64,000 nucleotides of DNA, from the NCBI GenBank assembly GCA_030704665.1, contig JAUYID010000009.1, positions 330,460 through 394,459 of the forward strand. The letters are read 5' to 3'. The stretch is from a bacterium. Lineage in GTDB: Bacteria > Patescibacteriota > Microgenomatia > Woykebacterales > RBG-16-39-9b. The stretch's first letter is position 1, and each line of letters begins with the position of its first letter. Under the pieces are notes generated by a model that saw only the letters and a program-made list of their open reading frames with translations, was not told the origin of the DNA and searched no databases. A program made the translations under genes and the position numbers. Positions 848-54,609 of the stretch are shown in pieces.

Positions 848-1228
848 ATGAAAACAAAAGTTGAAACTGACGAAGCGCCAAAGGCACCTGGTTTACTTTC
901 CCAGGGAATCGTCGATGGCAATATGATCTACGTTGCTGGGCAAATCCACAGCACGCCCGACGGAAAGGTGATTGAGGGAACCACTGAAGAAAAAACTCAC
1001 CAAGTAATCAAAAATCTATCCGCAATTCTGAAAGCTGCTGGTGCCGATCTGACCCACGTCGTTAAAGTAACTATTTACGTTACCGACATTGCCGAATTGC
1101 CGAAACTCAATGAAGTCTACAAAACCTATTTCACCACTGAGCCCCTGCCGGTCAGAGAAGCAGTCTGCGTCAAAGCCCTTCCTCTCGGTGCAACAATCGA
1201 AATGAGCTGCATCGCCTCCAAAGACTGA
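848..1228 (+). CDS. RidA/YjgF/TdcF-family reactive-intermediate deaminase
   Basis: 126 aa; typical RidA fold signature (GxxxVAGQI..., VKVTIYVTD..., C-terminal PLGAxIEMxCIA). Low-GC coding. Ends with TGA. Confidence 0.85.
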   Translation: MKTKVETDEAPKAPGLLSQGIVDGNMIYVAGQIHSTPDGKVIEGTTEEKTHQVIKNLSAILKAAGADLTHVVKVTIYVTDIAELPKLNEVYKTYFTTEPLPVREAVCVKALPLGATIEMSCIASKD

Positions 1229-1326: not shown

Positions 1327-1836
1327 ATGAAAGGGAGTTGTACTCCCAGAAGGGGAAGAATCGTGAGTAAGATCAGTGTGGAACTGCAGACAGTTGACCT
1401 CGGTCATGGTGATGTACGGCCTATACCGGCGGAGTTCGTGGTGAAAGCCTTCCGCGCAGCTCACTTGTGCCAACACCAGTGGTTGGGCAAGTTCGCCGAC
1501 TTTCTGGAGGCGATCAAGATTCATTGGGGAACTCACTCAACCGAGGTTCAATTCACCTTCTACTTCAAAGGGGCCGTTGCGGGAGGTGGCAAGACGGAGA
1601 TCGAGGTAGGGTGGAATCGGGCCGGTTGTTTCATCAACGAAAACTACATCAACGATTGGCCTTACCGGAAAGTCGTTTGGGAAAGGGACACACCATTGGA
1701 CCTATCGTCCCTGCTGGCCTTGCTGGTGAAGCGAGCCCTTCGGCAGGCTTTCGAGGAGCGGGTTCAGAAGGGCAACGATTCACTAGAGATCGTCGAGACA
1801 ATTCCAGTCACCGACTGGACACCGTCTAACCCGTAG
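1327..1836 (+). CDS. Hypothetical protein, GC-rich (~55%); start uncertain (TTG 1297 / ATG 1327 / GTG 1363 with AGGGGA SD)
   Basis: Open frame 1297..1836 with no family recognised. An extended -10 (TGtTGTATAAT) lies at about 1284-1294. No copy of the 24-nt motif precedes this ORF. Confidence 0.45.
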   Translation: MKGSCTPRRGRIVSKISVELQTVDLGHGDVRPIPAEFVVKAFRAAHLCQHQWLGKFADFLEAIKIHWGTHSTEVQFTFYFKGAVAGGGKTEIEVGWNRAGCFINENYINDWPYRKVVWERDTPLDLSSLLALLVKRALRQAFEERVQKGNDSLEIVETIPVTDWTPSNP

Positions 1837-1898
1837 AGTTCGAAAGACTGCAACACACAAGCGCTACGAGCAATCGTGGCGCTTCCCATTTTCAAAGG

Positions 1899-1922
1899 TT
1901 GAATTTAAGCGAAGGAAAAAGT
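1899..1922 (+). repeat. Copy 3 of the conserved upstream motif (TTGAATTTAAGCGAAGGAAAAAGT)
   Basis: Read directly, 13 nt upstream of ATG 1936. Preceded by an imperfect hairpin (GCGCTACGAgcaaTCGTgGCGC) that follows the stop of the previous ORF. Confidence 0.6.
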
Positions 1923-1935
1923 TAAAATTTATGCG

Positions 1936-2481
1936 ATGGAAACAATCAACTTGGGTAAACTTAGTTTCATTCCTTTTGTAGAAGAACCAGAGCTTGTGGC
2001 TGCGACTGTAAAAGACCTCATTGAAAAGAATAACCTTGCCGATAAAGTTTGGGTTAGCAAAATTGACCCTGGGCTAGCTGATACGGCTGCTTTTTGTGAG
2101 CATTACGAAATTGGCATGGATGTAGCGGCCAACTGTGTGATAGTTGAAGCTAGTCGTGCCGAGCGGTCTTGGTACGCTGTTTGTCTTGTTCTCGCTACAA
2201 CTCGCGCTGATATCAACGGAGTAGTCCGGAGAAAACTTGATGCAAGAAGAGCCTCTTTTGCTCCGATGGAGACTGCAGTGTCCTTGACAAAAATGGAGTA
2301 CGGGGGAATTACACCAATAGGGCTACCAGAAGAATGGCCAATTCTGATTGATGAAGCAGTATGTAAACAAGAGCGAGTAATAGTTGGAAGTGGCATTCGC
2401 GGCTCGAAACTTTTGGTGGCAACAAGCCTATTTACTGAACTTCCCAACGCTGAAATACTTCCTATCACTAAGACCGAATAA
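1936..2481 (+). CDS. YbaK/ProX-family aminoacyl-tRNA deacylase-like (editing-domain) protein
   Basis: 181 aa. GGITPIG and IVGSGIRGSKLLV align with the YbaK GGISPLG / YVSGGKRGLDIEL motifs. Confidence 0.7.
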   Translation: METINLGKLSFIPFVEEPELVAATVKDLIEKNNLADKVWVSKIDPGLADTAAFCEHYEIGMDVAANCVIVEASRAERSWYAVCLVLATTRADINGVVRRKLDARRASFAPMETAVSLTKMEYGGITPIGLPEEWPILIDEAVCKQERVIVGSGIRGSKLLVATSLFTELPNAEILPITKTE

Positions 2482-2492
2482 TTCACAAGAAG

Positions 2493-2516
2493 TTGAATTT
2501 AAGCGAAGGAAAAAGT
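2493..2516 (+). repeat. Copy 4 of the conserved upstream motif (TTGAATTTAAGCGAAGGAAAAAGT)
   Basis: Read directly, 11 nt after the stop of the YbaK-like ORF and 24 nt before a short ORF starting at 2541. Confidence 0.6.
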
Positions 2517-2540
2517 GATTACTAATAGTTTGTGTCGATA

Positions 2541-2711
2541 ATGGTGTTGACGTTGACAACAATGTTGGTGTTGTCACCAGTGTTGACAAAAACGTCTATA
2601 CTGGTAATACTAGAAAAAGATCTGCCTTATGAATTTTCTAACTGTCCAAAAACTCTCTGCAATGTCTCTTTCTGGAATTTCAACTTTAAAAAAAATAAAT
2701 TTGTGGGCTGA
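2541..2711 (+). CDS. Possible 56-aa hydrophobic small protein (MVLTLTTMLVLSPVLTKTSILVILEKDL...)
   Basis: ATG 2541, TGA 2709-2711 in frame, translated by hand; below the 60-aa cutoff of the ORF track. Sits exactly where a fifth cassette ORF would be expected after motif copy 4. The GTTGAC-rich codon repeats could equally be a non-coding hairpin region. Confidence 0.2.
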   Translation: MVLTLTTMLVLSPVLTKTSILVILEKDLPYEFSNCPKTLCNVSFWNFNFKKNKFVG

Positions 2712-2714
2712 CAA

Positions 2715-2815
2715 GGCAAACCACTGGGGTGGGGTACGGGTTCTGACCCCGTTTCTACCGTTTACAAAACGGTTGCATCACCATTATGCTAACCCCACCG
2801 TAAGGTTGGTTTGCC
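2715..2815 (+). ncRNA. Candidate structured RNA: closed multi-branch fold (P1 GGCAAACCA/TGGTTTGCC; P2 GGTGGGGT/ACCCCACC; three internal hairpins)
   Basis: Complementary segments read directly: 9-bp and 8-bp closing helices enclose hairpins ACGGG-TTCTGA-CCCGT, ACCGTTT-ACA-AAACGGT and GCAT...ATGC. No ORF >60 aa anywhere in 2600..3350. Confidence 0.3.
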
Positions 2816-2914
2816 TCGCCAACTCATAAATCGAAAGCTGGTTGACAACCTCAACCACGTCATTAGCTTACTTATTGGCACTTGTCGGGATTAAAAATCC
2901 TGATTTGTGCCAAC

Positions 2915-2952
2915 GAAATCCCGCTGGAGCGCGCCGCTTTTTGCGGGATTTC
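2915..2952 (+). terminator. Strong hairpin GAAATCCCGC-(18 nt)-GCGGGATTTC followed by a T-rich tract; terminator-like or RNA structural element
   Basis: Perfect 10-bp inverted repeat read directly, followed by TTGATTG. Confidence 0.35.
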
Positions 2953-3354
2953 TTGATTGTAATTGATACAATCATTTCAACATCACCTTACCTTTCCGCC
3001 CTGTTGGGCTAATGGCTAAAGACCCTTTTAGGGGAAGGTAGGTTAGACGGATTGAGGTTGCCAAGCAACTATCGACTTTTTAAAGCGCAAAAGCCACCCT
3101 TTTTTGCGAGTGGCTTTACAGCCCGTCGCAAGAATTTCTTAGTCCTCTTGTTTTGCCGCTTTCTAAAGTTATTCAACTTCTTTAGCGACGGGGCAATCGT
3201 TAGATTGCTTCTTTTATTAAAGACATTGAAACTGAGATTGTCAAGGCTAAGGTAGAGTAGTAATTAGGTTCTTAGAGTTGAATTTTCGCTGAATGGGCAG
3301 AGTAAATAGTTATGTAGTAAACAGAAAATTTTACTTCTTTTAGACCTAAGTTTT

Positions 3355-3968
3355 TTGCTCGATCGAGCATCTTTTCTTTTTGCTATACTTTCCCAAATGA
3401 CAGCTGAAGTGCCGCAAATTTATATTCTCGACAGAAAAGCCTGGAGAGAGTGGCTTAGCCAAAACCACGACAAAGTGGGAAGTATTTGGCTCGTTCACGA
3501 CAAGGCCTCCAAAGGTGGAAAACTTTCCTACGACGACTTGGTCGAGGAAGCGCTTTGTTTTGGCTGGATTGACGCTACCCTCAAAAGTTTGGATGAAAAT
3601 CGTTCCATGATTTATGTCTGTGCCCGCAAGCCGAAAAGTATCTGGGCAGCCTCCAATAAAGCTAGAGTTGAAAAGTTAATCAAGAAGGTTTAATGACAAG
3701 GCCCGGCCTTGCAGTGGTTGAGAGGGCCAAAGCAGATGGCTCGTGGTCAGCCTTTGATGTGGTGGAGGATCTAGTCTTGCCAGAGCAGTTGCAAGCAGCC
3801 TTCGCGAAAAACGCTAAGGCCGCCGAGAACTTTGAAAAACTTTCCCTGTCCGTGCGCAAACAAATTCTCTACTATATTTATAGCGCCAAACAAGAAGAAA
3901 CGAGAAAGCAGCGGGTGGAGAAACTACTACCTAGTCTGGCAGAGGGCAAGAATCCGTTTATTGGATAA
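3355..3968 (+). pseudogene. YdeI/OmdA-family (DUF1801-associated, ~190 aa in other bacteria) gene split into two ORFs (3355..3693 and 3693..3968) by a stop/frame change at an overlapping TAATG
   Basis: N-part has the family motif EEALCFGWIDATLKSLDE...KPKSIWAASNKARVEKLIKK. C-part (MTRPGLAVVERAKADGSWSAFDVVEDLVLPE...) continues the same family in another frame. Either a frameshift pseudogene/sequencing error or a genuinely split, translationally coupled pair. Confidence 0.5.
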
Positions 3969-4031
3969 ATTTTGAAGTTGCGCAAAGTTTTCAACGGCTA
4001 AAGTTTGTGTTACGATAAATGCAGTCTGCCC

Positions 4032-5393
4032 ATGACTTACCTCAGGAAATTTCTTCACAACAAAATTTATTTAGGCTCTGCTCTAGCCGCGGTTCTCCTC
4101 TTAAGTATCGGGGGCGGCTACCTTTTACTCGCCAAAAATTCTGCCAACCCCAAAACCAATTCCGCCTCTTCCAGCTCGGCACAAAAAGAAACCCAAGGCG
4201 GTTCACGTATGGGGGACCCCAATTCCACTGACCCAGTTGAGAAAGGAAAAGCTTTGTCTGGCGGTAATTGTTCTGGTACCGGAAGCAAGAAGTTAAACTC
4301 GGCCCCAATGAGAATCAAGGATATTAGTTACATCCAACCCTACGGACTTTTGGCCGGCCCTCACGTGACGCCAATCGATCACGGTTATTACTGGGGCAAG
4401 GTTCCTTTCGGAGATCCAGATCTGTACGACGTTCTAGCACTTTCGGATGGGAAAATCGTCAATATTGGCTATCGGGATCGCAGTGGCGAGGGCAGGAAAG
4501 TAAAAGGGGATTATCGGGTTGTGATCAGCTACTCCTGTACGTTTTTCAGTTACTTCGATCTGGCCACCAGTCTGGATCCAGCAATTCGCAGGCAGCTGCC
4601 AAAGGATTGGGAAAAAGCTGACAACAAAGTCGTTAATACGGATATAAACATTAAAGAGGGACAAGTTTTGGCGAAATTTGGCGGGCAATCCCTAGATTTT
4701 GCAGTTTGGGATACCACCAAACAATTAAAAAACCTGCTCGTTCCAACTGCCTACAACAATGCCGAGCCTTGGAAGATCAACACGGTTAATCCTCTGGAAT
4801 ATTTCTCAGACTCGGTTAAATCACAAATACTACCGTTTTACTTGAGAAAAGTTGAGCCGCTTGATGGGGTGATCGATCAGGATATCGATGGCAAGGCCGC
4901 CGGAAATTGGTTTGCCGAAGGGACCAATGGTTACGCTGGAGTTTTTAGCTATGGTAGTGCCGGTGGAGGACAAAACAACTACTGGGCCGGGCACTTGGCT
5001 TTGGTACACGATCTTTACGAGCCGAGCGGTTGGGTTTTCTCGATTGGGAATTTAAACGGTGAAGCGAAGCAGTTTGGCATTAAAGCACCAAGTCCAACCC
5101 CGGACAAACTTGAAATTGCCAGCGGACTGGTAAAATACGAAATTGGCGCGTGGCAACACGTTGAAACAAACGGCAATGTTTGGCTAGGTAAGGCCTTTCC
5201 AACTGGTGGTCTAAAAATGAAAGTGGGGAATAGTCAGGGAACGGTGTTAGTTCAATTATTAGAAAAAAGAAAGCTAAAAATTGAGGTTTTCCTCAATAAG
5301 ACCCCTTCCCAGGTTTCTGGTTTCACTTCTGCTGCTCGGATCTACGACCGCGGCGACAACGCCAAAATGATTAAATCCAACACTGCCACGTAG
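4032..5393 (+). CDS. Hypothetical secreted/membrane-anchored protein (N-terminal signal-anchor LGSALAAVLLLSIGGGYLLL)
   Basis: Long ORF (track 4005..5393); ATG at 4032 gives an N-terminus followed by a TM segment. No family recognised; Gly/Asn/Trp-rich extracellular region. Confidence 0.55.
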   Translation: MTYLRKFLHNKIYLGSALAAVLLLSIGGGYLLLAKNSANPKTNSASSSSAQKETQGGSRMGDPNSTDPVEKGKALSGGNCSGTGSKKLNSAPMRIKDISYIQPYGLLAGPHVTPIDHGYYWGKVPFGDPDLYDVLALSDGKIVNIGYRDRSGEGRKVKGDYRVVISYSCTFFSYFDLATSLDPAIRRQLPKDWEKADNKVVNTDINIKEGQVLAKFGGQSLDFAVWDTTKQLKNLLVPTAYNNAEPWKINTVNPLEYFSDSVKSQILPFYLRKVEPLDGVIDQDIDGKAAGNWFAEGTNGYAGVFSYGSAGGGQNNYWAGHLALVHDLYEPSGWVFSIGNLNGEAKQFGIKAPSPTPDKLEIASGLVKYEIGAWQHVETNGNVWLGKAFPTGGLKMKVGNSQGTVLVQLLEKRKLKIEVFLNKTPSQVSGFTSAARIYDRGDNAKMIKSNTAT

Positions 5394-5422: not shown

Positions 5423-5842
5423 TCACAAAAGCTTTCTCTTTTTCATTTCTTGCAGATTGTGCTCGATTATCTTTTTGAGAACGGATCCATCCACATCGGA
5501 GAGCTTGTTGATGTAGAGACAACCCTTGCTGGTCTTGTGTTTGCCAAGTTTTGCTAGCAGGTTGGGATCGTCCAGACCTAACATTATGTATAGCGTTAGA
5601 TTTTGCTTGCGGGGAGAAAAGCCGGTCAGTGGCCAGTCGCCCTCCTGAGCGCTGCGTTCGGATTTGTAGTGGTATTGCCCAAAACCGACAATGCTTGGAC
5701 CCCACATTTTGGGTCTTTCGCCGGTTACTTCCTCGAAAATTTCCAATAGTTTGAAACTGTCTTTTCTTTTGATTTCTTCCGGAACAGCGTTTAAGAAATC
5801 TCTGACACTGGCATCATTTACCTTTGTCTTCAGTTCGGCCAT
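5423..5842 (-). CDS. DUF1801 (YdhG-like) domain protein
   Basis: 139 aa; N-terminal KVNDASVRDFLNAVPEE...FKLLEIFEEVTGE is characteristic of the DUF1801 family. Confidence 0.65.
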   Translation of the reverse strand: MAELKTKVNDASVRDFLNAVPEEIKRKDSFKLLEIFEEVTGERPKMWGPSIVGFGQYHYKSERSAQEGDWPLTGFSPRKQNLTLYIMLGLDDPNLLAKLGKHKTSKGCLYINKLSDVDGSVLKKIIEHNLQEMKKRKLL

Positions 5843-5871: not shown

Positions 5872-7086
5872 TTATTCAACAAAGGTTAAGGCAATACCTT
5901 TTTTGTTCGCTCTTCCAGTTCGGCCGATACGGTGAATGTAGTCCTCGTAAGTCTCGGGAAGTTCGTAGTTAATGACGTGAGAAACGTTGTCAATATCTAG
6001 TCCGCGAGCGGCCACGTCAGTTGCCAAAAGAACATTAAACTGGTTATTTTTGAAATCTTTCAGAGTTCGTTGTCTTTGACTTTGCGAGCGGTTGCCGTGA
6101 ATAGCTCCGACCTTAAACCCGCGAGTTTCCAGTTGGCGGGCGAGTTTTTCCACACCGTGTTTGGTACGACCGAAAACCATGACTTTGTCAAATTCCTCTT
6201 GAATCAAAAGATCATGCAAACGCTCCATTTTGGTTCCGGGAGTAACTTTGACCACATTTTGGTCGACATTTTCACTAGTTGGTTGAGTTTGCACTGAAAC
6301 TGTGACCGGATCAGTCACGAAAGCCTGCAGAACTTGTCTGACTTTGGGGTTAATCGTGGCTGAAAAGAAAAGCGATTGTCGAGGACTTGGCAAAAGGGAA
6401 ATAAAGTATTTCACATCATTGATAAAACCAATATCAACCATGAGGTCAACTTCATCAAGAACAATAGTTCGAAAGTTGCCCAGGTTAAGGATTTTTTGCT
6501 GCAGAAGATCTTTCAGTCTTCCGGGAGTGCCGATAACGATGTTTGGATTGCGCTCCAAGTCCCAGCGCTGACGGTTGAGAGAAGCTCCCCCAATACAAAC
6601 TGCTGAATAAATTTTTAAGCCAAAAGAAAAGCTGCGTAGCTCCTCATTGATTTGGGTAGCGAGCTCTCGAGTCGGAGCCACGATCAAAGCTTTCTGGCTT
6701 CGATCACGCCAAATTTTGTTGATGATTGGGATCAAAAAAGCGGCTGTTTTCCCCGTTCCAGTGTTGGCTAGACCAATCAAGTCTCGGCCTTCAAGCATGG
6801 GGCCGATGGCCTTGTCTTGAATTGAAGTAGGTTGAGTGTAACCACGATGCGCGATATTACTTTTTAGTTCTGGGGCAATCGGGAAGCTTGCGAAAGAGTT
6901 GCTCGCTTGATAGCTTTCCGCCTGCAAAACTTCAGCGGCTTTTTTGATAAAGATACTGTGATCAGCACCAATCAATTTACTTTTGTTTTTTCCAGCAAAG
7001 CCAACGGCTTGATTGCCGGCAAATTTGTTATAAAGTTTTCGGCCCTGGTTTGGACGCCCGAATCTACTTCGTTTTTGTCTATACAT
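5872..7086 (-). CDS. DEAD-box ATP-dependent RNA helicase (motif II is DEVD) with a basic RG-rich N-terminal extension
   Basis: Q-motif region GYTQPTSIQ, motif I TGTGKTAAF, Ia APTRELA, GTPGRL, motif II VLDEVDLM, SAT, motif VI HRIGRTGRA. Confidence 0.9.
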   Translation of the reverse strand: MYRQKRSRFGRPNQGRKLYNKFAGNQAVGFAGKNKSKLIGADHSIFIKKAAEVLQAESYQASNSFASFPIAPELKSNIAHRGYTQPTSIQDKAIGPMLEGRDLIGLANTGTGKTAAFLIPIINKIWRDRSQKALIVAPTRELATQINEELRSFSFGLKIYSAVCIGGASLNRQRWDLERNPNIVIGTPGRLKDLLQQKILNLGNFRTIVLDEVDLMVDIGFINDVKYFISLLPSPRQSLFFSATINPKVRQVLQAFVTDPVTVSVQTQPTSENVDQNVVKVTPGTKMERLHDLLIQEEFDKVMVFGRTKHGVEKLARQLETRGFKVGAIHGNRSQSQRQRTLKDFKNNQFNVLLATDVAARGLDIDNVSHVINYELPETYEDYIHRIGRTGRANKKGIALTFVE

Positions 7087-13029: not shown

Positions 13030-14356
13030 GTCTCGATCTCTCCGTAGTCTCTTCCTGGGGTTGGACAAAGAGTAGCGACCCAGCCCCGTTGCAAGAAGAC
13101 GATTGCTCTCGGTGCGATTCTGTAGCCAAAGTACGCAGAGCGTCCTTCTTCAGCTTCTTGGTTTGGAACTTACCCCTTTTTTCACAGCGTCGACAGTGCC
13201 AGGTGTAGCGTAGGATCCGTGGTGGGCGGCCAACACGGAGAGTCTGCAACCACTCTTCTTGCCGAGACAGAAAACGCTCGCTGAGACGGGGTTGGTAGGG
13301 TAGGTCTTTGACTTCATGCTCCCAACAAAGATGGCCAGCACAAAAGCGCCGTGCGCAGGTCCCACAGCGCCGTCCGTAAGCTTTGCTACACCAGCCCCCA
13401 AAGGAACAGCTTGTGTTCTTTCCCAGTGGGTTGTTAATTGTTAGCGTACTGACATGCGGTTCGGTTGTCGGAACAGTTTCTCTGTTTAGGTTAACTAGCC
13501 TGCGTAGGCTGGCGAACTCATCGACTGGAACAAAAGACCGTCCCCTTCGGTAAGACTGCGGAGAACTCTTCACCACCTGTCCCACAGATTCTGGTTTTCT
13601 GTTTTGTCCCAGGATTACTGCCTTGGCGCGCTTCTCAGAGGCTAACCCTCCGTGAGCTGCAAAGCCAATGACCAGCCTGCGTTCAAGCAATTTCTTGTCA
13701 TCCCAACAGAGACGACACTTGTCGCACTTGGTGCCGTGGGTTTGTTCTCGACAGGGAATAACCTTCAACCCAGCCATGTCGTAAACACTGTTTGAAGCGT
13801 GTTCAGTGACGACGATGGCTGCTGCATAACCTCTTTCCCAGGCAACTTCGACATCGGCCTTGGTTTCGCAGGAAGCCAGGACCGAGACTGGACCCCAGAC
13901 CTCACTGGGGACGAGATGGGAGGCGTGGGTGTAAGTCCAAACGGCAGGCATCTCTTCCTTGGCTAGGTAGCCACGAAGACGATAGCGCTGCACGGCTTTA
14001 ACCAAAAGACGAGTTCCGGCTACGGTAGTTGAGTCTCCAACGACGTGAAGTCGCAGAGCTCGCAAACCACTGAGCTTATCAATTGCGGCTGCTTCCTCGA
14101 CTGCTAGATCAAAGGTTGTTGCCTTTGGGTTGGCCGCATTGAGGCGGCGAGTAGTCGTCATCCCAATGTAGCCGTTTTCGGCATAACAACCGTTGTTCAG
14201 AAGGGGGCAAGTTTTTGGGCAAGAGCCTTGGGAGACGTTGGTAGTAGAAACCGGACCGATCTTGTTGTTGGCCGTCACCTCTTTGGCGAAAACTGAGGGC
14301 AAAGGGGCTTCGGGAGTGTTTGGAACCCCGACCAAGTTTATGGCTTGATTGACCAC
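13019..14356 (-). CDS. Cys-rich hypothetical protein (445 aa) in a GC-rich (~55%) island; N-terminal CPxTCP…GCYA cysteine cluster and several CxxC pairs; possibly phage/plasmid-derived
   Basis: GTG start with strong AAGGAGG SD; own promoter. Recognition of the N-terminal motif as a phage-associated family is from memory and uncertain. Confidence 0.5.
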   Translation of the reverse strand: MVNQAINLVGVPNTPEAPLPSVFAKEVTANNKIGPVSTTNVSQGSCPKTCPLLNNGCYAENGYIGMTTTRRLNAANPKATTFDLAVEEAAAIDKLSGLRALRLHVVGDSTTVAGTRLLVKAVQRYRLRGYLAKEEMPAVWTYTHASHLVPSEVWGPVSVLASCETKADVEVAWERGYAAAIVVTEHASNSVYDMAGLKVIPCREQTHGTKCDKCRLCWDDKKLLERRLVIGFAAHGGLASEKRAKAVILGQNRKPESVGQVVKSSPQSYRRGRSFVPVDEFASLRRLVNLNRETVPTTEPHVSTLTINNPLGKNTSCSFGGWCSKAYGRRCGTCARRFCAGHLCWEHEVKDLPYQPRLSERFLSRQEEWLQTLRVGRPPRILRYTWHCRRCEKRGKFQTKKLKKDALRTLATESHREQSSSCNGAGSLLFVQPQEETTERSRRAD

Positions 14357-14401
14357 TTCCGAGACCTCCTTTCCTTCGTTCTCTCGTCTTCTCTCGAGCC
14401 G

Positions 14402-14430
14402 ATAATATTATTTGTCAGGATAAATTGCAA
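14402..14430 (-). promoter_or_regulatory. Sigma70-like promoter TTGCAA-17-TATTAT for the 445-aa Cys-rich gene (minus strand)
   Basis: Hexamers and spacing read on the reverse complement; ~45 nt upstream of the GTG start. Confidence 0.5.
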
Positions 14431-14462
14431 GATTGTTTTAGGGTTGGCTAAAAATTTGGGGT

Positions 14463-14501
14463 GGGACCGGTTGCTTGAGAGCGAGAAAAGCAACCGGTCC
14501 C
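14463..14501. other. Perfect 14-bp inverted repeat GGGACCGGTTGCTT-(11 nt)-AAGCAACCGGTCCC between the two island genes (terminator or operator palindrome)
   Basis: Read directly. On the minus strand it is followed by ACCCCAAATTTTT. Confidence 0.5.
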
Positions 14502-14766
14502 GGGCGGTGGGTAGGTAGAAAGCGAACTTCAAGTGGCGATGCCAAACTCTTGAGCAAGCGTGACCGCGTTGGTCCAGAGCCGGGTTCCAAGACCATCAGG
14601 ACATGAAAGAGCGTTGCGTCGGTGGGACCGCAGCAGGCGCGTGATCAGGTTCTTGCCCAGACTGAGCTTGCCACTACTCCCACACCGATAACAGCTCCAC
14701 CGCGCGCAGCTTTGAATCTCCTCCGTTTGCGCTAGCATCATGGTAAGCCTTTCTTGTCTTTTTCAG

Positions 14767-15081
14767 CTAGACACCTCTAGGCATCGGGGTCCTGGTTTGG
14801 AAACAGGAGCTACAGTAGACCGGCAGACCTGGCTTTGGTACGAAAGGGACTTTGGCGAGCCCTCCGCAGTCAGTGCAGGTTGTCTCGCTCAGTACTCTGT
14901 CCCCAGATCGGGAAGCCTGCTCCCACTCTTCGAAACGTGCTCGTTTGGCCACTCTGCAGCCAGGACACCGCTTGGGAGGGTTGTTTAACCCCTTATCCCG
15001 GTAAAACTCTTGCTCGCCAGCTGTGAAGCTGAAGTCGTCCCCACAGTCCTTGCAAGAAAGAACCTTGTCTCGAAAACTCAC
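14767..15081 (-). CDS. Tandem zinc-ribbon domain protein (CxxCG…FxFTAGEQEFY…KRCxxCR repeated twice), GC-rich island
   Basis: GTG start with AAGGAG SD gives a 104-aa protein. The upstream part of the longer track ORF 14767..15183 overlaps the rpsF promoter, so it is unlikely to be coding. Confidence 0.5.
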   Translation of the reverse strand: MSFRDKVLSCKDCGDDFSFTAGEQEFYRDKGLNNPPKRCPGCRVAKRARFEEWEQASRSGDRVLSETTCTDCGGLAKVPFVPKPGLPVYCSSCFQTRTPMPRGV

Positions 15082-15161
15082 CGTTCTCTCCTTTTCACCT
15101 TCCCGGATTCTTAGGCGGGATAATATCTCGAAAAGACAAAAATTGCAAATTACAAAAAAGC

Positions 15162-15191
15162 TTGAAGGTGCTTGCTCCCGCATGTTATACT
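15162..15191 (+). promoter_or_regulatory. Sigma70-like promoter TTGAAG-17-TTATAC(T) for the rpsF-ssb-rpsR operon
   Basis: Hexamers read directly ~50 nt upstream of the rpsF ATG. Confidence 0.5.
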
Positions 15192-15240
15192 CGGACTCGG
15201 TTTTTAAAATACCTGAAAACGAAAGGAAACCAAAGCAAAA

Positions 15241-15588
15241 ATGGCTGACTATGAGCTTGCTTTAGTAACTTCTGACGATTTGCCAGAAAAAGACAAAAAA
15301 GAGTTGCTTTCGACAGTCGAAAAGAAAGTTGCTCTCGGCGAAGGAAAAGTGGGAAATATTGAAGAGTGGCCGAGAAAAAGCCTCGCTTACCCAATCAACA
15401 AAAAAACTACAGCCAATTTTACTTTCGTTGAATTTAGTGGAGATGCCTCTGTTCCAGCGGCGATCAGACGAGAACTGAACTTGTCCGAAAACATTTTGCG
15501 TTCCCTTTTAATAAAAAAAGAGGCAGTCAAGGCAAAAGCCAAAGATAGGAGAGCAAGGATCAAAAAGGCCAAGGAGGATCTGAATTAA
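15241..15588 (+). CDS. rpsF: 30S ribosomal protein S6
   Basis: MADYELALVTSDDL…IEEWPRKSLAYPINK typical of S6, with a basic C-terminal tail. Confidence 0.9.
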   Translation: MADYELALVTSDDLPEKDKKELLSTVEKKVALGEGKVGNIEEWPRKSLAYPINKKTTANFTFVEFSGDASVPAAIRRELNLSENILRSLLIKKEAVKAKAKDRRARIKKAKEDLN

Positions 15589-15640
15589 TTTAGAATTAAT
15601 AATGAAGAATTCTGAATTTTAGCTACGGAGGTTAAAAACT

Positions 15641-16198
15641 ATGTCTAGTAGAAGTTTGAACAAAGTGATGCTGATTGGTAATCTGACCCGAGATCCGGAG
15701 TTGCGCTACACCCCGCAGGGAACTGCGGTCTGTTCTTTTGGACTAGCTACGAATCGTAGCTGGATGCCATCAGATGCCTCCGAAAGACGGGAAGAAACTG
15801 AATTTCACCGCATTGTCTCCTGGAACAAACTAGCTGAGCTTTGTAGTCAACTGTTGACCAAGGGTCGTAAAGTTTATATTGAAGGTCGGCTCCAAACCCG
15901 GAGTTGGGAAGGTCAGGATGGAGAAAAGCGCCAAGCAACTGAAGTCGTTGCTGAGGATATGGTCATTCTTGATTCAAAAAGAGAACGAGAAGGTGGTGAG
16001 GCTGAGTTTTCTGAGTCTGGGAGTCAGGAAGTAGCTGCCGAGGCAGCTGGCGAGAAGAAAGAGACCAAGAAAGCCACCGCCGAAAAAGAGGAAGACTCTT
16101 CTGAGAGCAAAGTAGAAAAGAAATCAAAAGACGAGAAAAAAGAAAAGGAAAGTAAAGAGGAAGACGACGTCATTGACCTCGACGATATTCCCTTCTAA
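15641..16198 (+). CDS. ssb: Single-stranded DNA-binding protein
   Basis: OB-fold N-terminus ([32 protein letters not shown]), acidic/K-rich linker, C-terminal DDIPF tail. Confidence 0.9.
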
Positions 16199-16203
16199 AA
16201 ACT

Positions 16204-16434
16204 ATGGCACAGACAAATTCACGAAACAAGCGCAAGGTTTGTAATTTTTGCAAAGAAGAGACAAGCGTTTCTTACAAAGACCTTGAAACTTTAAAAAAGT
16301 TTACTACCGAAAGAGGAAAAATCGTCGGTCGAGCTAAAACCGGAACCTGCTCAAGTCATCAACGGCAGCTTACGAATGCAATCAAAAGAGCCCGCTATTT
16401 GGCTCTGCTTCCGTTTTCCACCAGAAGCCGCTAA
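16204..16434 (+). CDS. rpsR: 30S ribosomal protein S18
   Basis: CNFCKEE…[17 protein letters not shown]…[18 protein letters not shown] is typical of S18. Confidence 0.9.
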
Positions 16435-16530
16435 AGAGATAACAAAAAAAAAACAAGCGGCATCTTTTCATCTTGGGCAAGCCAGTTTTAATGGTATAAT
16501 TTTAAGACCGGAAAAGAAAAACTTGCTTCA

Positions 16531-17580
16531 ATGAGCGTACCAAAAGGCAAACTTGTCACCATCGATATTGGTTCTTCCTGGACAAAAGTTTTTGTCATTG
16601 ATCATGACCGTGGCAACAAACTGGCGATTGGGGGTAGCTACAGTCTTCCAACCTCGAGCGGAGACCTGAAACTCTCTATCGAAGAAATTTTTCAAAAACT
16701 AAAAATCATTCCGAAAGAAAATGTTTTGCTTTTCTCAAGCAGCTTTGAAGAAGCTGATAGTCTTGCCAGCGACTATAAGGGAATTTTCGTTCCTTTGGCT
16801 GAAATAAAGAAAAACTTGGGAGTGTGGCTCAAACAGCAAGGCTACCCAAACTGCAAATTTTTTGACGCGGGTAGTGATATTTTTAAAGCTGACTACAAAG
16901 TAAACGAACTTGGGGCTTTCCTTTCCTTTTCGTTTGGAGAAATTGATCTGGAAAACCATCTTGCCAATCGAGCCATGCATTTTCATACTTTAGCTGAAAC
17001 TCAGAAGGAAATGGAGACGGACCGGGCGGTAATACGCTCTGCTCTCGCGAAACTCGAGGACAGCCTGAATGAGGCGAGCAACGTCTTGATGACGGGAGCT
17101 TTGGTTGCTGCTCAGACCAAGTTTTCAAAACTTGCCTTGGTCATGCTTGACGTTTTGAGTCCACACAAAGTGGCTGAAGTTTTGGTTGATACCAAAAACT
17201 TTGCGAACAGTTGGGGAGCGGCAATTACTAAATATAAAGAACTGCTCGATTTCGAAATCGATTTTGTGGAAAAACTAGGTAGTTTTGTTTCCTTGGGTGG
17301 GGAGGGAACAGTTGGCTTGGACTACGGACTGAAAAATGTGCAGGAAGTCAAGGTCGCCGAAAATGAGATTGCTTTGATCCCAGCCAATGAGGAACAAGAA
17401 GTTCAGGTTGAGTTTTCCATTGGCAAAGAAAAGCGTAAAGTGGAAACCGGTGGAGGACACTACGGAATTTTGCTAGACGGAAGAAAAAAACCTTTACCGC
17501 TGATTTTTGGACAGTCGTCTTCCCAAAAAGCAATGTTGAAATGGGAAGAAGCAATTGAAAAAGTGGAGCTGATCAAATGA
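16531..17580 (+). CDS. Hypothetical protein; N-terminus (LVTIDIGSSWTKVFVI) faintly resembles the phosphate-1 motif of actin-like (ASKHA) ATPases
   Basis: 349-aa ORF with an upstream promoter (TTGGGC-16-TGgTATAAT). Overlaps the next ORF by 4 nt. Confidence 0.5.
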   Translation: MSVPKGKLVTIDIGSSWTKVFVIDHDRGNKLAIGGSYSLPTSSGDLKLSIEEIFQKLKIIPKENVLLFSSSFEEADSLASDYKGIFVPLAEIKKNLGVWLKQQGYPNCKFFDAGSDIFKADYKVNELGAFLSFSFGEIDLENHLANRAMHFHTLAETQKEMETDRAVIRSALAKLEDSLNEASNVLMTGALVAAQTKFSKLALVMLDVLSPHKVAEVLVDTKNFANSWGAAITKYKELLDFEIDFVEKLGSFVSLGGEGTVGLDYGLKNVQEVKVAENEIALIPANEEQEVQVEFSIGKEKRKVETGGGHYGILLDGRKKPLPLIFGQSSSQKAMLKWEEAIEKVELIK

Positions 17581-18635
17581 TCAATCCCACTATCTTGCGT
17601 ATCGGGTCGAGTTCTTATGATCTGGTCAGAAAATTTCCCGGAAAGGGTAAGGCCAGTGTTAAAGTTGGGGACAGTGTGGCCGCAGCTGATATCGTGGCCC
17701 ATTGCGAAGTTTCGGCGGGACAAAGACTAGTAAAAGTGGCACACAGTTTGGGAGTGGGCGCGCGCGAGGTAGAAAAATATTTGATCCGTTCGGTAGGAGA
17801 CAGAATTTACCAGGGGGAAGTGATTGCCCGTAGAACTGGAGTACTTGGCTTGGGTAAAAAAGAGGTCAAGTCGCCAGCCGATGGTTTGATTTTTGGTGTC
17901 GATGTCAACGGAGACTTGATCATCAAATTCATGCCGACTTCGATTCGCCTCGCAGCCGGAGCAAGTGGTAAAGTGACTGATGTGTCCGAAGACGGTGTGA
18001 CGATTTCAACTAATGTGACTGAAGTTGCCGCCCCGATCGCTTCCGGAAAAGAACGGGACGGAGCGCTAAAGGTGGTTGGTTCCCACAATGATTTTCTTTT
18101 GCCTCAGCACATTGATGCTTCGGCGAGTGGAAAAATTATCGTCGGTGGAGCCCTAGTCGAGCGGGCGACGATCGAAAAAGCACTGACTGTAGGTGTGCAC
18201 GGTATCGTTGTCGGAGGAATAAACTACCGTGATTTTTTAAGCCTTGGTGTTGGTAGTGATGTCGGTTTGACGGTTTTAGTTACTTGCGGCTACGGGGCCT
18301 TTCCAATGGGGGAGGATATTCACGATAAGCTCAAAGCCCTCGAGGGTTATTTTGCTTTTATTTCTGGAGAAAAGGCTAAACTGGTAATCCCCGATCTTAA
18401 TGCCAAAACAACCAAAGCCAATCAACCTAGTGTGGAGAGCTGGAAGAAGCTTGGTGTCGGGGATAAAGTTAGGGTTCTCCATGAAAAAGAAGAAAAACTC
18501 CTCGGCAAAGTTTTGGAGTTGAAAGAAAACCAAGTGCTTCCTTCGACCGTGATCGCCGAAACTGCTCTTGTTGAGTTGACTGACGGAAAAAAGGTTGAAG
18601 TGGCAGCAGCCAATTTGCAAATTGTTTTTAGCTAA
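17577..18635 (+). CDS. Hypothetical protein (352 aa), Gly/Val-rich, no family recognised
   Basis: ORF translationally coupled (ATGA) to the preceding gene, followed 2 nt later by the S41 protease gene. Confidence 0.5.
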   Translation: MINPTILRIGSSSYDLVRKFPGKGKASVKVGDSVAAADIVAHCEVSAGQRLVKVAHSLGVGAREVEKYLIRSVGDRIYQGEVIARRTGVLGLGKKEVKSPADGLIFGVDVNGDLIIKFMPTSIRLAAGASGKVTDVSEDGVTISTNVTEVAAPIASGKERDGALKVVGSHNDFLLPQHIDASASGKIIVGGALVERATIEKALTVGVHGIVVGGINYRDFLSLGVGSDVGLTVLVTCGYGAFPMGEDIHDKLKALEGYFAFISGEKAKLVIPDLNAKTTKANQPSVESWKKLGVGDKVRVLHEKEEKLLGKVLELKENQVLPSTVIAETALVELTDGKKVEVAAANLQIVFS

Positions 18636-18637
18636 AA

Positions 18638-19867
18638 ATGAAAGAAAAAATCAAAAGCCTAATAGTTAAACATTACGTTCAAGCGGTTGGGGCCCTGGTA
18701 CTTTTTGCTCTTGGAGTTTGGATCGGGCAAAACTTTGACATCAACGTCGGCCAAAAAACTACCCGTGGTGAGTTCAAACCCCTGATCAGTCTCAGCAATC
18801 GTCAAACTCCGACAAATACTACGGTCAGTTTCAACCAGTTTTGGGAAGTTTGGGATCATCTAACCAGTGAGTACCTGAACAAAAATGATATTGACCAACA
18901 AAAACTTCTTTACGGAGCAATCTCAGGTTTGGTTGAAGCGGCTGGAGATCCCTACACTGTTTACCTTGACCCAGAGTCCAACAAAGACTTTGATTCGCAG
19001 CTCAACGGTACTTTTGAGGGGGTGGGGATTGAGATTGGTTCCAAGGACGGCAAACTTGTCGTCATCTCACCAATTGAAGGCACACCAGCGATGGAAGCTG
19101 GGGTACTGGCGGGGGATATCATCACCAAAATTGACGGTAAGGACGCTTCCAGCCTGTCACTAGTAGAGGCAGTCAAAACTATTCGTGGGCAAGCGGGCAC
19201 CCCCGTCCATTTTGTTTTTTCACGAGCCGGGAAACTAGTTAACAAGACCATCACTCGTACCAAAATCACCATCAAGAGTGTTGAGTTTGCCAACAAAGGA
19301 GAGGAAGTTGCTGTGATCCGGATTAATCGCTTCGGAGACTCAACTCAGGAAGAGTGGGACAGTGCGGTGAACAAATTTACTTCGGGGAAGTTCCAAAAAC
19401 TTATTCTCGATCTGCGCAACAATCCTGGTGGCAGACTGGATACTGCCATTTACATTGCCAATGAGTTTGTCGCAGCCGGAACTAGTGTAGTTTTGGAAGA
19501 AGACTCGGGTGGAAACAGACAGGAATTTAAAGGTGAGCGTAACGGGCGCCTGCAAGAGATTACCCCAGTAGTTTTGCTCAATAAAGGCAGTGCCTCAGCT
19601 TCTGAAATTGTCGCCGGAGCCCTAAGAGACTTGAAAGGTGCACCTCTGCTCGGGGAAACCAGCTATGGAAAAGGGACGGTCCAAAAAGTTGAAGATTTGG
19701 AGGCAGGTGCAGCTCTACATATCACTATCGCTAAATGGCTTACCCCCAAAGGAATTTGGGTTCATGGTAAAGGGCTCAAGCCCGATACCGAAGTTAAACT
19801 AACCGCCAAAGACATCAAAGCAAACAAAGATCCCCAACTAGAGGCAGCCCTCAAACTGCTAAAATAA
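18638..19867 (+). CDS. C-terminal processing (S41, CtpA/Prc-like) serine protease with PDZ domain, N-terminal TM anchor
   Basis: PDZ segment GVGIEIGSKDGKLVVISPIEGTPAMEAGVLAGDIITKIDGK; S41 motifs NPGGRLDTA and NKGSASASEIVAGAL. Confidence 0.85.
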   Translation: MKEKIKSLIVKHYVQAVGALVLFALGVWIGQNFDINVGQKTTRGEFKPLISLSNRQTPTNTTVSFNQFWEVWDHLTSEYLNKNDIDQQKLLYGAISGLVEAAGDPYTVYLDPESNKDFDSQLNGTFEGVGIEIGSKDGKLVVISPIEGTPAMEAGVLAGDIITKIDGKDASSLSLVEAVKTIRGQAGTPVHFVFSRAGKLVNKTITRTKITIKSVEFANKGEEVAVIRINRFGDSTQEEWDSAVNKFTSGKFQKLILDLRNNPGGRLDTAIYIANEFVAAGTSVVLEEDSGGNRQEFKGERNGRLQEITPVVLLNKGSASASEIVAGALRDLKGAPLLGETSYGKGTVQKVEDLEAGAALHITIAKWLTPKGIWVHGKGLKPDTEVKLTAKDIKANKDPQLEAALKLLK

Positions 19868-41798: not shown

Positions 41799-42196
41799 AG
41801 ATTTTTGATCTCAGGAGAATAAAAAACTTCTCGGGAAAGAGTTTTGGCCTCACCAGTCTTTTGGTCGAAGGCAATGATGTTGATCTGATTTTCGCCTTCG
41901 GTGAGAGTATAGGTGAGACTAAACTTTCCGTCCGTGGTTTCGGTACTAGTATCTTGCGCCCCACCGCTGACCACGACAACTGAGTCGCTACCGGTTGAGC
42001 CCTCAATGACAACCTCTTTCTCAAAAGTTGAGGAACCGTCAGCGGGGGCATCAGTCAGAATTAGGGAAAAGCTTTTAGCACTGTTTTGAGTTGAAGTGTC
42101 CGAACCTTTTGAGAAAAAGCGGAAATAAACAAAGGTGCCAAGGGCCAAAATCACCAAAAAGAAAATTAGAAAAGTGATTAGACTGCGTTTGTTCAT
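41795..42196 (-). CDS. Signal-anchored hypothetical protein with Ig-like Ser/Thr-rich ectodomain
   Basis: 133 aa; TM LITFLIFFLVILALGTFVYF. Confidence 0.5.
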   Translation of the reverse strand: MNKRSLITFLIFFLVILALGTFVYFRFFSKGSDTSTQNSAKSFSLILTDAPADGSSTFEKEVVIEGSTGSDSVVVVSGGAQDTSTETTDGKFSLTYTLTEGENQINIIAFDQKTGEAKTLSREVFYSPEIKNL

Positions 42197-54216: not shown

Positions 54217-54609
54217 ATGGCACAGAAGATATTGGTAGTTGAAGACGATCAATTTTTGAGAGAACTCTACGACGAACTTCTTTCAGGAGAGGGTTATGAG
54301 GTAAGTGTGGCCGCCGACGGTCAAGAAGGTTTTGATAAAGTTTCCGCTGGTGGTTTTGACCTAGTTTTACTTGATATTATGCTGCCAAAAATTGATGGTC
54401 TGGAAGTACTACGCAAACTAAAAGAAACTCCTCCAAAACAAGCAAACGGTCCCACGGTTTTGCTGACCAATTTGGGTCAAGACTCGATCATCAAAGAAGG
54501 TTTTTCTTTGGGTGCGGCGGGTTATCTAATAAAATCAGCTATGAACCCAGACCAAGTTCTCAATGAGGTAAAAGTATTTTTAAGTAAGAGTAACATCAGC
54601 CACAAATGA
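54217..54609 (+). CDS. Stand-alone response-regulator receiver domain (CheY-like)
   Basis: ILVVEDD…, phospho-acceptor D in LVLLDIMLP, T/K positions conserved. No output domain; no histidine kinase in the window. Confidence 0.75.
   Translation: MAQKILVVEDDQFLRELYDELLSGEGYEVSVAADGQEGFDKVSAGGFDLVLLDIMLPKIDGLEVLRKLKETPPKQANGPTVLLTNLGQDSIIKEGFSLGAAGYLIKSAMNPDQVLNEVKVFLSKSNISHK

Follow-up and report, generated by a model that had tools for sequence, protein, structure and literature searches.

An atypical minus-strand tRNA gene beside a strongly folded element of no known class in a Patescibacteria genome

The 64,000-nucleotide (nt) stretch of a Patescibacteria genome analyzed here (hereafter the window; GenBank assembly GCA_030704665.1, contig JAUYID010000009.1, positions 330,460–394,459) contains, at 2517–3354, a segment that we find to be real but heterogeneous: it combines an atypical tRNA gene with a strongly folded element of no known class. 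The structured core of the segment, 2688–3078, reads best on the minus strand, as two adjacent modules that are each closed by a long, near-perfect duplex. In module A, the duplex (stem A) surrounds the tRNA; module B, closed by stem B, lies directly upstream of the tRNA module on the minus strand. Our tentative preference is to view the core as a horizontally acquired tRNA-plus-RNA unit that would be matured by cleavage of the two paralogous duplexes.

The stretch 2690–3090 is the most structured of the window, far beyond chance. When the window was scanned by GC-regressed minimum free energy (MFE; 2554 windows of 200 nt), the seven most extreme GC-corrected windows all fell within 2651–3100. 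Relative to dinucleotide shuffles, the z-score of the minus strand was -11.1 for 2650–3250 and -6.4 for 2690–2840, while 2820–3090 gave -9.0 on the minus strand and -8.5 on the plus strand. The two long inverted repeats of the core rank first and third within the window. As controls, we folded the window's other top inverted repeats, one intergenic and one within an open reading frame (ORF) of 130 amino acids (aa) (42014–42119 and 54235–54409), which proved no better than shuffles (z = +0.2 and -0.9). A first-pass annotation had described about 800 bp packed with strong stem-loops; this description is apt for 2690–3090 and does not extend to 3080–3360, which is weakly structured (z = -2.0 plus, -2.7 minus). 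The individual helices named in that annotation are all present, with coordinates that are exact or within 2–3 nt.

Two duplex-closed modules on the minus strand

Both Rfam and ARAGORN identify a tRNA gene with anticodon UGU on the minus strand at 2725–2798 (to 2799 with G-1). The match to Rfam family RF00005 is full length (1–71 of 71) and scores 53.6 bits, compared with a gathering score of 29, and ARAGORN calls the gene tRNA-Thr(tgt). CCA is encoded at 2725–2727, and the discriminator, C73 (2728), pairs in the fold with an encoded G-1 (2799), giving an 8-bp acceptor helix. The acceptor end therefore reads G(-1)-GUGG.../...CCAC-C-CCA, with pairs G1-C72, U2-A71, G3-C70, and G4-C69. The cloverleaf is intact, with 24 Watson-Crick pairs and a standard 7-nt anticodon loop, UUUGUAA. 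Positions conserved among tRNAs include U8, A14, G18G19, U33, a purine at 37, G53-C61, Psi55, and C56, together with the near-universal T54 and A58. In the alignment and the cloverleaf, the window tRNA keeps U8, A14, G18G19, U33, A37, G53-C61, U55, and C56; its T-loop is GUCAGAA, with G at both position 54 and position 58. With introns allowed, in tmRNA mode, and at lowered thresholds, ARAGORN reported no tmRNA, no intron-containing tRNA, and no second tRNA.

This gene explains the closed multi-branch fold that had been noted at 2715–2815, and for that part the result is a routine annotation. The helices of that fold are real, and the assignment to an unknown class does not hold: its three hairpins correspond to the T, anticodon, and D arms of the tRNA, and the acceptor stem, lengthened by the G-1:C73 pair, accounts for the 8-bp helix. 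The first-pass annotation had read the plus strand alone and missed the cloverleaf. The locus tags from 01905 (a 193-aa gene) to 01940 (the anchor gene described below) leave room for exactly one annotated feature in the gap, presumably this tRNA.

Stem A frames the tRNA precisely, with linkers of 7 nt and 4 nt. Its 5′ arm, or leader, spans 2806–2832 (core GUUGGCGAGGCAAACCA, 2807–2823), and its 3′ arm, or trailer, spans 2698–2724 (core UGGUUUGCCUUGUCAGC, 2707–2723), the two forming a 25-nt inverted repeat that is 80% complementary. On the minus strand, 2807–2823 and 2707–2723 form 17 uninterrupted pairs, three of which are G·U pairs that become A·C mismatches on the plus strand, and the whole duplex is ~25 bp (2698–2832). 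The 9-bp closing helix of the first-pass annotation (GGCAAACCA, 2715–2723, with TGGTTTGCC, 2807–2815) is the inner part of this duplex. We compared stem A with 34 control tRNAs from the loci fetched for this study (~1.8 Mb, mostly Patescibacteria). The leader/trailer helices of the controls do not exceed 9 bp, as against 17 bp here, and the window's own tRNA-Leu has none. C73 is likewise absent from every other tRNA on the control list that has an identifiable encoded CCA.

Directly after the 3′ arm comes a U-run, UUUAUUUUUUUU (2688–2699), which is unpaired or weakly paired in the folds. Stem A followed by UUUAUUUUUUUU has the layout of an intrinsic terminator on the minus strand, and a U8-containing run follows the stem on this strand only. 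The U-run is likely to be the end of a transcript.

Stem B is built from the longest inverted repeat in the window (27 nt, 81% complementary). Read on the minus strand, its 5′ arm is 3046–3078 and its 3′ arm is 2830–2863, which contains GGTTGACAACCTCAACCAC in the plus-strand reading; 3078–3046 and 2863–2830 form ~33 pairs, 19 of them uninterrupted. The interior, 2864–3045, is a five-way junction on which the MFE and centroid folds agree for both strands. It carries four near-perfect hairpins, at 2875–2913, 2915–2952, 2955–2973, and 2985–3044, the second of which is the 10-bp hairpin described earlier (AAATCCCGC.../...GCGGGATTT). In all, 65 of the 73 interior pairs are Watson-Crick and 8 are wobble pairs. 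Since the arms GGCTGACAAGGCAAACCAC of stem A and GGTTGACAACCTCAACCAC of stem B, which lie at the inner ends of their stems and share one register, agree in 14 of 19 nucleotides, the two stems look paralogous.

We searched Rfam 15 with the whole window at the gathering score and with 2300–3600, 2810–3100, and 3070–3360 at E<=10. Apart from the tRNA, neither 2830–3078 nor 3080–3354 matched a family at E<=10 in their 291-nt searches; what was returned was noise (E of 1.2–7.6; 11–16 bits, compared with thresholds of 45–149). Module B belongs to no described RNA family, and calling it a structured RNA of unknown class was fair, as it was not for the tRNA part, which Infernal assigns to RF00005. The proposal that the segment holds a self-splicing-intron remnant is unsupported, as Rfam gave no intron match.

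Strain specificity and competing interpretations

By blastn, 2517–3354 has no similarity to any of the 154 fetched loci, including 80 GTDB Patescibacteria loci and syntenic relatives whose anchor proteins are 53%–76% identical to that of the window. In the two closest relatives among the fetched loci, L002 and L003 (anchor-protein identity 76% and 66%), the syntenic site contains neither the tRNA nor similarity to the segment, and this is also true of the 80 GTDB loci. No match to the segment was present in the phage and plasmid collections or in the genome and metagenome collections, and exact patterns for the tRNA and the arms gave either no matches among viral contigs or three chance ones inside coding sequence. 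The exact proteins of the flanking genes returned only one contig, L001 (a Logan contig from run SRR13727534), which is identical to the window, extends 1058 bp beyond its left end, and may derive from the same sample; it holds the sole other copy of the segment, which is 100% identical. Homology between L001 and L002 resumes at about window position 3381, at the promoter of a YdeI/OmdA-family gene (L001 4439 opposite L002 9330 by blastn). Because it resumes only there, we take the whole of 2517–3354 to be accessory, strain-specific island DNA that forms the inner end of the island. The earlier suggestion of a degenerate cassette remnant was partly right in spirit, as the segment occupies the innermost position in a variable island of the cassette type.

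How might such a unit work? In the interpretation that we favor, modules A and B would have arrived by horizontal transfer and would be transcribed together, from right to left, with stem A and the U-run ending the transcript. The long duplexes may serve as processing stalks for a double-strand-specific RNase of the RNase III type, as they do around rRNAs, after which RNase P and 3′ trimming could finish the tRNA. The minus strand is favored by the strand of the tRNA, by the three G·U pairs in the inner 17 bp of stem A, and by the U-run. Two further features favor it: stem B has four G·U pairs on that strand and none on the plus strand, and the MFE of 2660–3100 is -180.0 kcal/mol on the minus strand, compared with -171.2 kcal/mol on the plus strand.

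Several observations weigh against this interpretation. When all helices are counted, the two strands have nearly equal numbers of wobble pairs (10 minus, 9 plus), which point to neither strand overall, and within the interior of module B they favor the plus strand by 6 to 2. Both strands of 2820–3090 fold almost equally well, and the helices are unusually clean in their Watson-Crick pairing, a pattern found in young DNA palindromes. The best candidate for a minus-strand promoter that we found by eye, TTGACA at 3244–3239, has a poor -10 element, is absent from the output of the promoter scan, and is not convincing; neither GNRA or UNCG loops nor any further tertiary motif of an RNA could be recognized. 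As none of the collections searched contains a homologue, there is no covariation and no sign of selection. Finally, G54 and G58 would disrupt a canonical T-loop, and the tRNA may be a pseudogene.

A serious rival, which we consider somewhat unlikely, is that the core acts as DNA: a foldback element, an element like a miniature inverted-repeat transposable element (MITE), or a recombination structure of a mobile island, with the tRNA as a passenger or old target and with no RNA product that matters. The arms would then be terminal inverted repeats or hairpin sites that are recognized as DNA. Such an element would account for the 134 Watson-Crick pairs and only 19 wobble pairs across stems A and B, the tRNA, and the interior of module B, for wobble pairs that are balanced between the strands, for strands that fold about equally, and for two modules with related arms, like copies of one element. 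It would also suit a strain-specific island with shuffled cassettes and a segment that is absent from all relatives compared. The left edge of the last array repeat (AAGAAGTTGAAT, 2487–2498) recurs at 3171–3182 as a perfect 12-nt inverted match, bracketing 2499–3170, but chance produces such 12-mer matches throughout the window and its significance is doubtful. Inverted arms, as in a MITE or foldback element, are present; the other hallmarks are missing: neither arms nor hairpins have further copies in the remaining 63 kb of the window or across ~1.8 Mb of fetched loci, the ends of modules A and B showed no target-site duplication, and no transposase or recombinase was detected among the 37 window ORFs scanned with Pfam, which leaves unscanned the last three ORFs of at least 150 aa (59.3–64 kb) and overlapping alternative-frame ORFs. 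A DNA element also does not explain why the tRNA is framed so precisely, by 7 nt and 4 nt, or why the U-run lies on the tRNA strand.

It is also conceivable, although we think it unlikely, that the segment is a relic, that is, a decaying acquired element whose pseudo-tRNA and leftover hairpins and terminators do no more than insulate the island from the core genes. The tRNA lacks T54, A58, and the C2-G71 pair of tRNA-Thr and scores 13–17 bits below housekeeping tRNA-Thr, the segment is unique to one genome, the neighboring YdeI/OmdA gene is split into two ORFs, and several terminator-like hairpins occur on both strands. Decay should, however, erode helices, and here the duplexes of 17 and 19 bp are uninterrupted, 65 of the 73 hairpin pairs are Watson-Crick, and the cloverleaf is intact, with conserved positions kept and CCA encoded. 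Very improbable, in our judgment, is that the hairpins are incidental to a small protein gene. The statement that no frame has an ORF longer than 60 aa is not strictly correct, since ORFs of 66 aa (2629–2829, plus strand, ATG start, antisense through the tRNA) and 67 aa (3052–3255, plus strand, TTG start) exist, in addition to one of 56 aa (2842–3012, TTG start). The region is nonetheless effectively non-coding: on the identical contig L001, the gene caller placed no gene between window positions 2481 and 3397. Two of the three ORFs start with TTG, none shows a ribosome-binding site or promoter geometry like that of the neighboring genes, and their sequences are dominated by palindromes. If an ordinary explanation holds, the gain is modest: a tRNA is placed on the minus strand, and the 800-bp gap is assigned to island-borne non-coding DNA.

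Flanks, cassette array, and neighboring genes

To the left of the core, within 2528–2611, short repeats of the GTTGAC(A) type occur on the plus strand at 2552–2565, 2570–2583, and 2582–2595, together with a promoter-like TTGACA-17-AATACT (2583–2611, plus strand; scan score 10/12) that points at the tRNA in antisense. Four of the 20 TTGACAA sites in the window fall within 2553–3244, where ~0.26 would be expected (P ~ 2e-4, Poisson estimate). We considered a Tn7- or CRISPR-associated-transposon-type end at 2530–2600, which was unsupported: the DNA covered contains no tns genes, and the repeats lack the length and regularity expected of such an end.

To the right, the remainder (3080–3354) is a spacer; it carries terminator-like hairpins on either strand, along with the next gene's promoter. 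The 8-bp GC-rich hairpin AAAGCCAC/GTGGCTTT (3093–3100 with 3112–3119), which forms in the folds and is followed by UUUUGCGCUUU on the minus strand, is terminator- or attenuator-like. The long-range hairpin CCCGTCGC...GCGACGGG (3122–3129 with 3186–3193), which has a 56-nt interior, forms in the minus-strand fold of 2650–3250. The terminator scan found two sites on the plus strand, a 9-pair hairpin, GGGGCAATCG..GATTGCTTC, followed by TTTTATT (3190–3211), and a second hairpin at the right border (3356–3369). Over 1800–4100, 8 terminator-like sites were found and 2.5 were expected. An extended -10-like TGcTATACT (3381–3389, plus strand) precedes the start codon (ATG, 3397) of the YdeI/OmdA-family gene, which corresponds to the gene call at L001 4455. 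This gene is split into ORFs of 98 aa (3397–3693, DUF8412) and 91 aa (3693–3968, OmdA) that overlap at TAATG, so that it is a pseudogene with a frameshift or else two coupled genes; the only ORF called for it in L002 is a 68-aa OmdA ORF.

The left border of the segment is the last, innermost copy of a 24-nt direct repeat, TTGAATTTAAGCGAAGGAAAAAGT, that occurs at 3–26, 777–800, 1899–1922, and 2493–2516, always on the plus strand and with none expected by chance. Two more copies in L001 (27–50 and 609–632) flank minus-strand genes, and L002 has three (5760–5783, 6190–6213, and 6712–6735). The repeat takes a 24–30-nt form, AAARN-TTGAATTTAAGCGAAGGAAAAAGT, and its orientation is constant even where the enclosed gene is inverted. 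The array genes to the left of the segment encode a 193-aa protein of no family, RidA, a 179-aa protein of no family, and a YbaK/EbsC-family deacylase. RidA is shared with L002 (window 848–1228, L002 5797–6177; 78% DNA identity), preceded by the repeat in both genomes and surrounded by different neighbors, so that genes between repeats appear to be shuffled between genomes. The repeat also directly follows the RidA stop codon in L002, and the window has at this place a possibly decayed copy, TTGAAGTC...AAAAAC (1229–1256).

The repeat contains TTGAAT and a conserved 17-nt spacer, with a -10-like hexamer just outside it and start codons 7–9 nt later, and thereby resembles a portable promoter from which leaderless mRNAs would be made. 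The hexamers TAAAAT, TATACT, and TAGAAT end 7–9 nt before starts in 1899–1936 and 3381–3399 of the window and in 5760–5799 and 6712–6751 of L002. The repeat is absent from the 80 GTDB loci, exact searches with it gave no match in the genome and metagenome collections, and a degenerate pattern gave 57 single-copy, chance-like matches and one viral match, inside a gene; among the collections searched, the repeat is known in two related Patescibacteria genomes only. A putative fifth, degenerate copy at 3277 was rejected (0.5 bits by position weight matrix, compared with 39–41 for true copies), as was an origin of the repeat from the 3′ end of the tRNA (att type), to which inspection revealed no similarity. 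Nor did the cassette proteins give any PHROG or Pfam signal as phage or defense genes.

The deacylase-family protein (1936–2481) carries an aminoacyl-tRNA editing domain and falls below the NCBIfam equivalog cut-offs; its cassette is adjacent to and convergent with the tRNA. On the other side of the segment lies the core genome, with genes for a DEAD-box helicase, YchF, SSB, RF-1, L31, histidyl-tRNA synthetase (HisRS), DnaB, and EF-P. The anchor protein (4005–5393; 462 aa) has no Pfam match and contains invariant GGHVTP[IV]DH and YSCTFFSY motifs. It has more than 600 homologues across Patescibacteria, almost all from Candidatus Saccharimonadales/Patescibacteria; some are in metagenome-assembled genomes labeled DPANN archaea, and a few have weak Peptidase_M23 matches. 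By these relatives, the genome is Saccharimonadales-like. A DUF1801 gene is located right of the anchor in the window (5423–5842) and inside the variable island in L002 (2641–3075), and because its position differs, the surroundings of the anchor appear to be rearranged on both sides. In L002, the region right of the anchor and helicase (13700–19500) is defense-island-like, with ThiF, E2-CBASS, and AAA/nSTAND-like genes that are absent from the window. A replication terminus or dif site was rejected, as no GC-skew switch was found in the window.

Relation to known cassette systems, structured RNAs, and tRNAs

Like integrons, the array has unrelated single genes in either orientation between repeats of constant orientation, with the RidA cassette in a different order in the relative, and modules A and B resemble attC sites in being long imperfect hairpins with variable interiors. 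It differs from integrons in its repeat, which is short (24–30 nt), is not palindromic, and resembles a -35 box plus spacer. By eye, no attC cores (RYYYAAC/GTTRRRY) were seen in stems A or B or beside the array repeat, and no integrase or recombinase was found in the DNA covered, which stops short of the head of the array. If real, an array of cassettes spaced by a short repeat of promoter-like character points to a way of shuffling genes that has not yet been described in ultra-small bacteria.

The duplexes can be compared with the RNase III stalks of rRNA and tRNA operons, which likewise are long (at least 17–19 uninterrupted bp) and enclose a stable RNA. To our knowledge, bacterial RNase III stalks occur around 16S and 23S rRNA and not around a single tRNA. 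Here, one duplex encloses a single tRNA, and two such units lie in tandem on one strand; cleavage is a prediction. If it occurs, a single tRNA and a neighboring RNA would be matured in an unusual way, by excision from long duplexes that are paralogous.

Bacterial Y RNAs (YrlA, Yrn1, and Yrn2) offer a second parallel, as in D. radiodurans the arrangement Yrn2-tRNA-Asp-Yrn1 has a Y RNA that is co-transcribed with a tRNA (PMC4201824). As in the window element, their 5′ and 3′ ends form a long stem that encloses a multi-branched or tRNA-like interior. Module B is, however, about twice their size, and whereas the long stem of YrlA leaves its tRNA-like domain at the anticodon position, that of the window element extends the acceptor end. 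A bacterial Y RNA is also expected to carry a Ro-binding stem motif and to have a Ro60/Rsr (TROVE) gene beside it. There was no Rfam match to a Y RNA and no Ro60/TROVE gene among the 37 Pfam-scanned window ORFs (three ORFs of at least 150 aa at the 3′ end were outside the scan).

The tRNA itself is best compared with the genuine tRNA-Thr(UGU) genes of Patescibacteria. In loci L023 and L040, the housekeeping tRNA-Thr(UGU) has a GCCG... acceptor with G1-C72, C2-G71, and U73, and a T-loop of TTCGAGT or TTCGAAT. The window tRNA shares with these a complete cloverleaf, an encoded CCA, G35, and U36, and its anticodon arm core, GUUUUGUAAAC, is identical to that in L040. It differs in that U2-A71 replaces C2-G71 and C73 replaces U73, in a score that is 13–17 bits lower (53.6 compared with 66.8 and 70.3), in its aberrant T-loop, and in its enclosure within a 17–25-bp duplex. 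The identity set of E. coli threonyl-tRNA synthetase (ThrRS) comprises G1-C72, C2-G71, G35, and U36; of the marks of a tRNA-Thr, both C2-G71 and a U or A discriminator are replaced in the window tRNA. It is not the housekeeping tRNA-Thr of its lineage.

At its acceptor end, the window tRNA matches tRNA-His: positions -1 to 4 and 69 to 76 (GGUGG...CCACCCCA) are identical to those of E. coli hisR, including a genome-encoded G-1 paired with C73, while the anticodon is UGU and not GUG and the body does not otherwise resemble hisR. In E. coli, C73 is confined to tRNA-His; HisRS recognizes its tRNA mainly by the G-1:C73 pair, which also directs RNase P to retain G-1, and only weakly by the anticodon, and a modeled G-1 clashes with ThrRS (PMC3064791, PMC4357726). 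The HisRS of the same genome (37537–38745) keeps the equivalents of Gln118, Arg121, and Arg123 and has Asn in place of Arg116 (E. coli numbering). To judge from these comparisons, the identity marks of the tRNA are mixed, with the acceptor end of a tRNA-His and the anticodon arm of a tRNA-Thr.

Given that dual-identity (mistranslating) tRNAs are known, such as tRNA-ProX of Streptomyces and Kitasatospora (PMC10404621), could the window tRNA be one of them? A joint scenario, which we regard as improbable, would make it a functional dual-identity tRNA with a HisRS-type acceptor and the Thr anticodon UGU, delivered by the cassette island beside the YbaK-family deacylase; the tRNA and a new ~200-nt five-way-junction RNA would be excised from paralogous duplexes, and the array would be an undescribed integron-like capture system. 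The tRNA could then insert His at ACA codons or, as may be considered because its T-loop is non-canonical, act outside the ribosome as a decoy or an aminoacyl donor. If this were true, a His acceptor signature joined to a Thr anticodon would add a new natural example of ambiguous tRNA identity, and would do so in a phylum whose translation machinery is minimal. Differences from tRNA-ProX are apparent: the amino-acid pair is His/Thr and not Pro/Thr, Pro/Asn, or Pro/Ala, the window tRNA has no dedicated synthetase beside it, the YbaK neighbor lies on the opposite strand and belongs to a different cassette, and the tRNA is a single occurrence with an aberrant T-loop. What the two have in common is that each pairs the identity marks of one amino acid on its body with the anticodon of another, and that each resides in accessory DNA beside a gene of the prolyl-tRNA synthetase editing-domain superfamily, which in the window is the YbaK/EbsC-family gene at 1936–2481.

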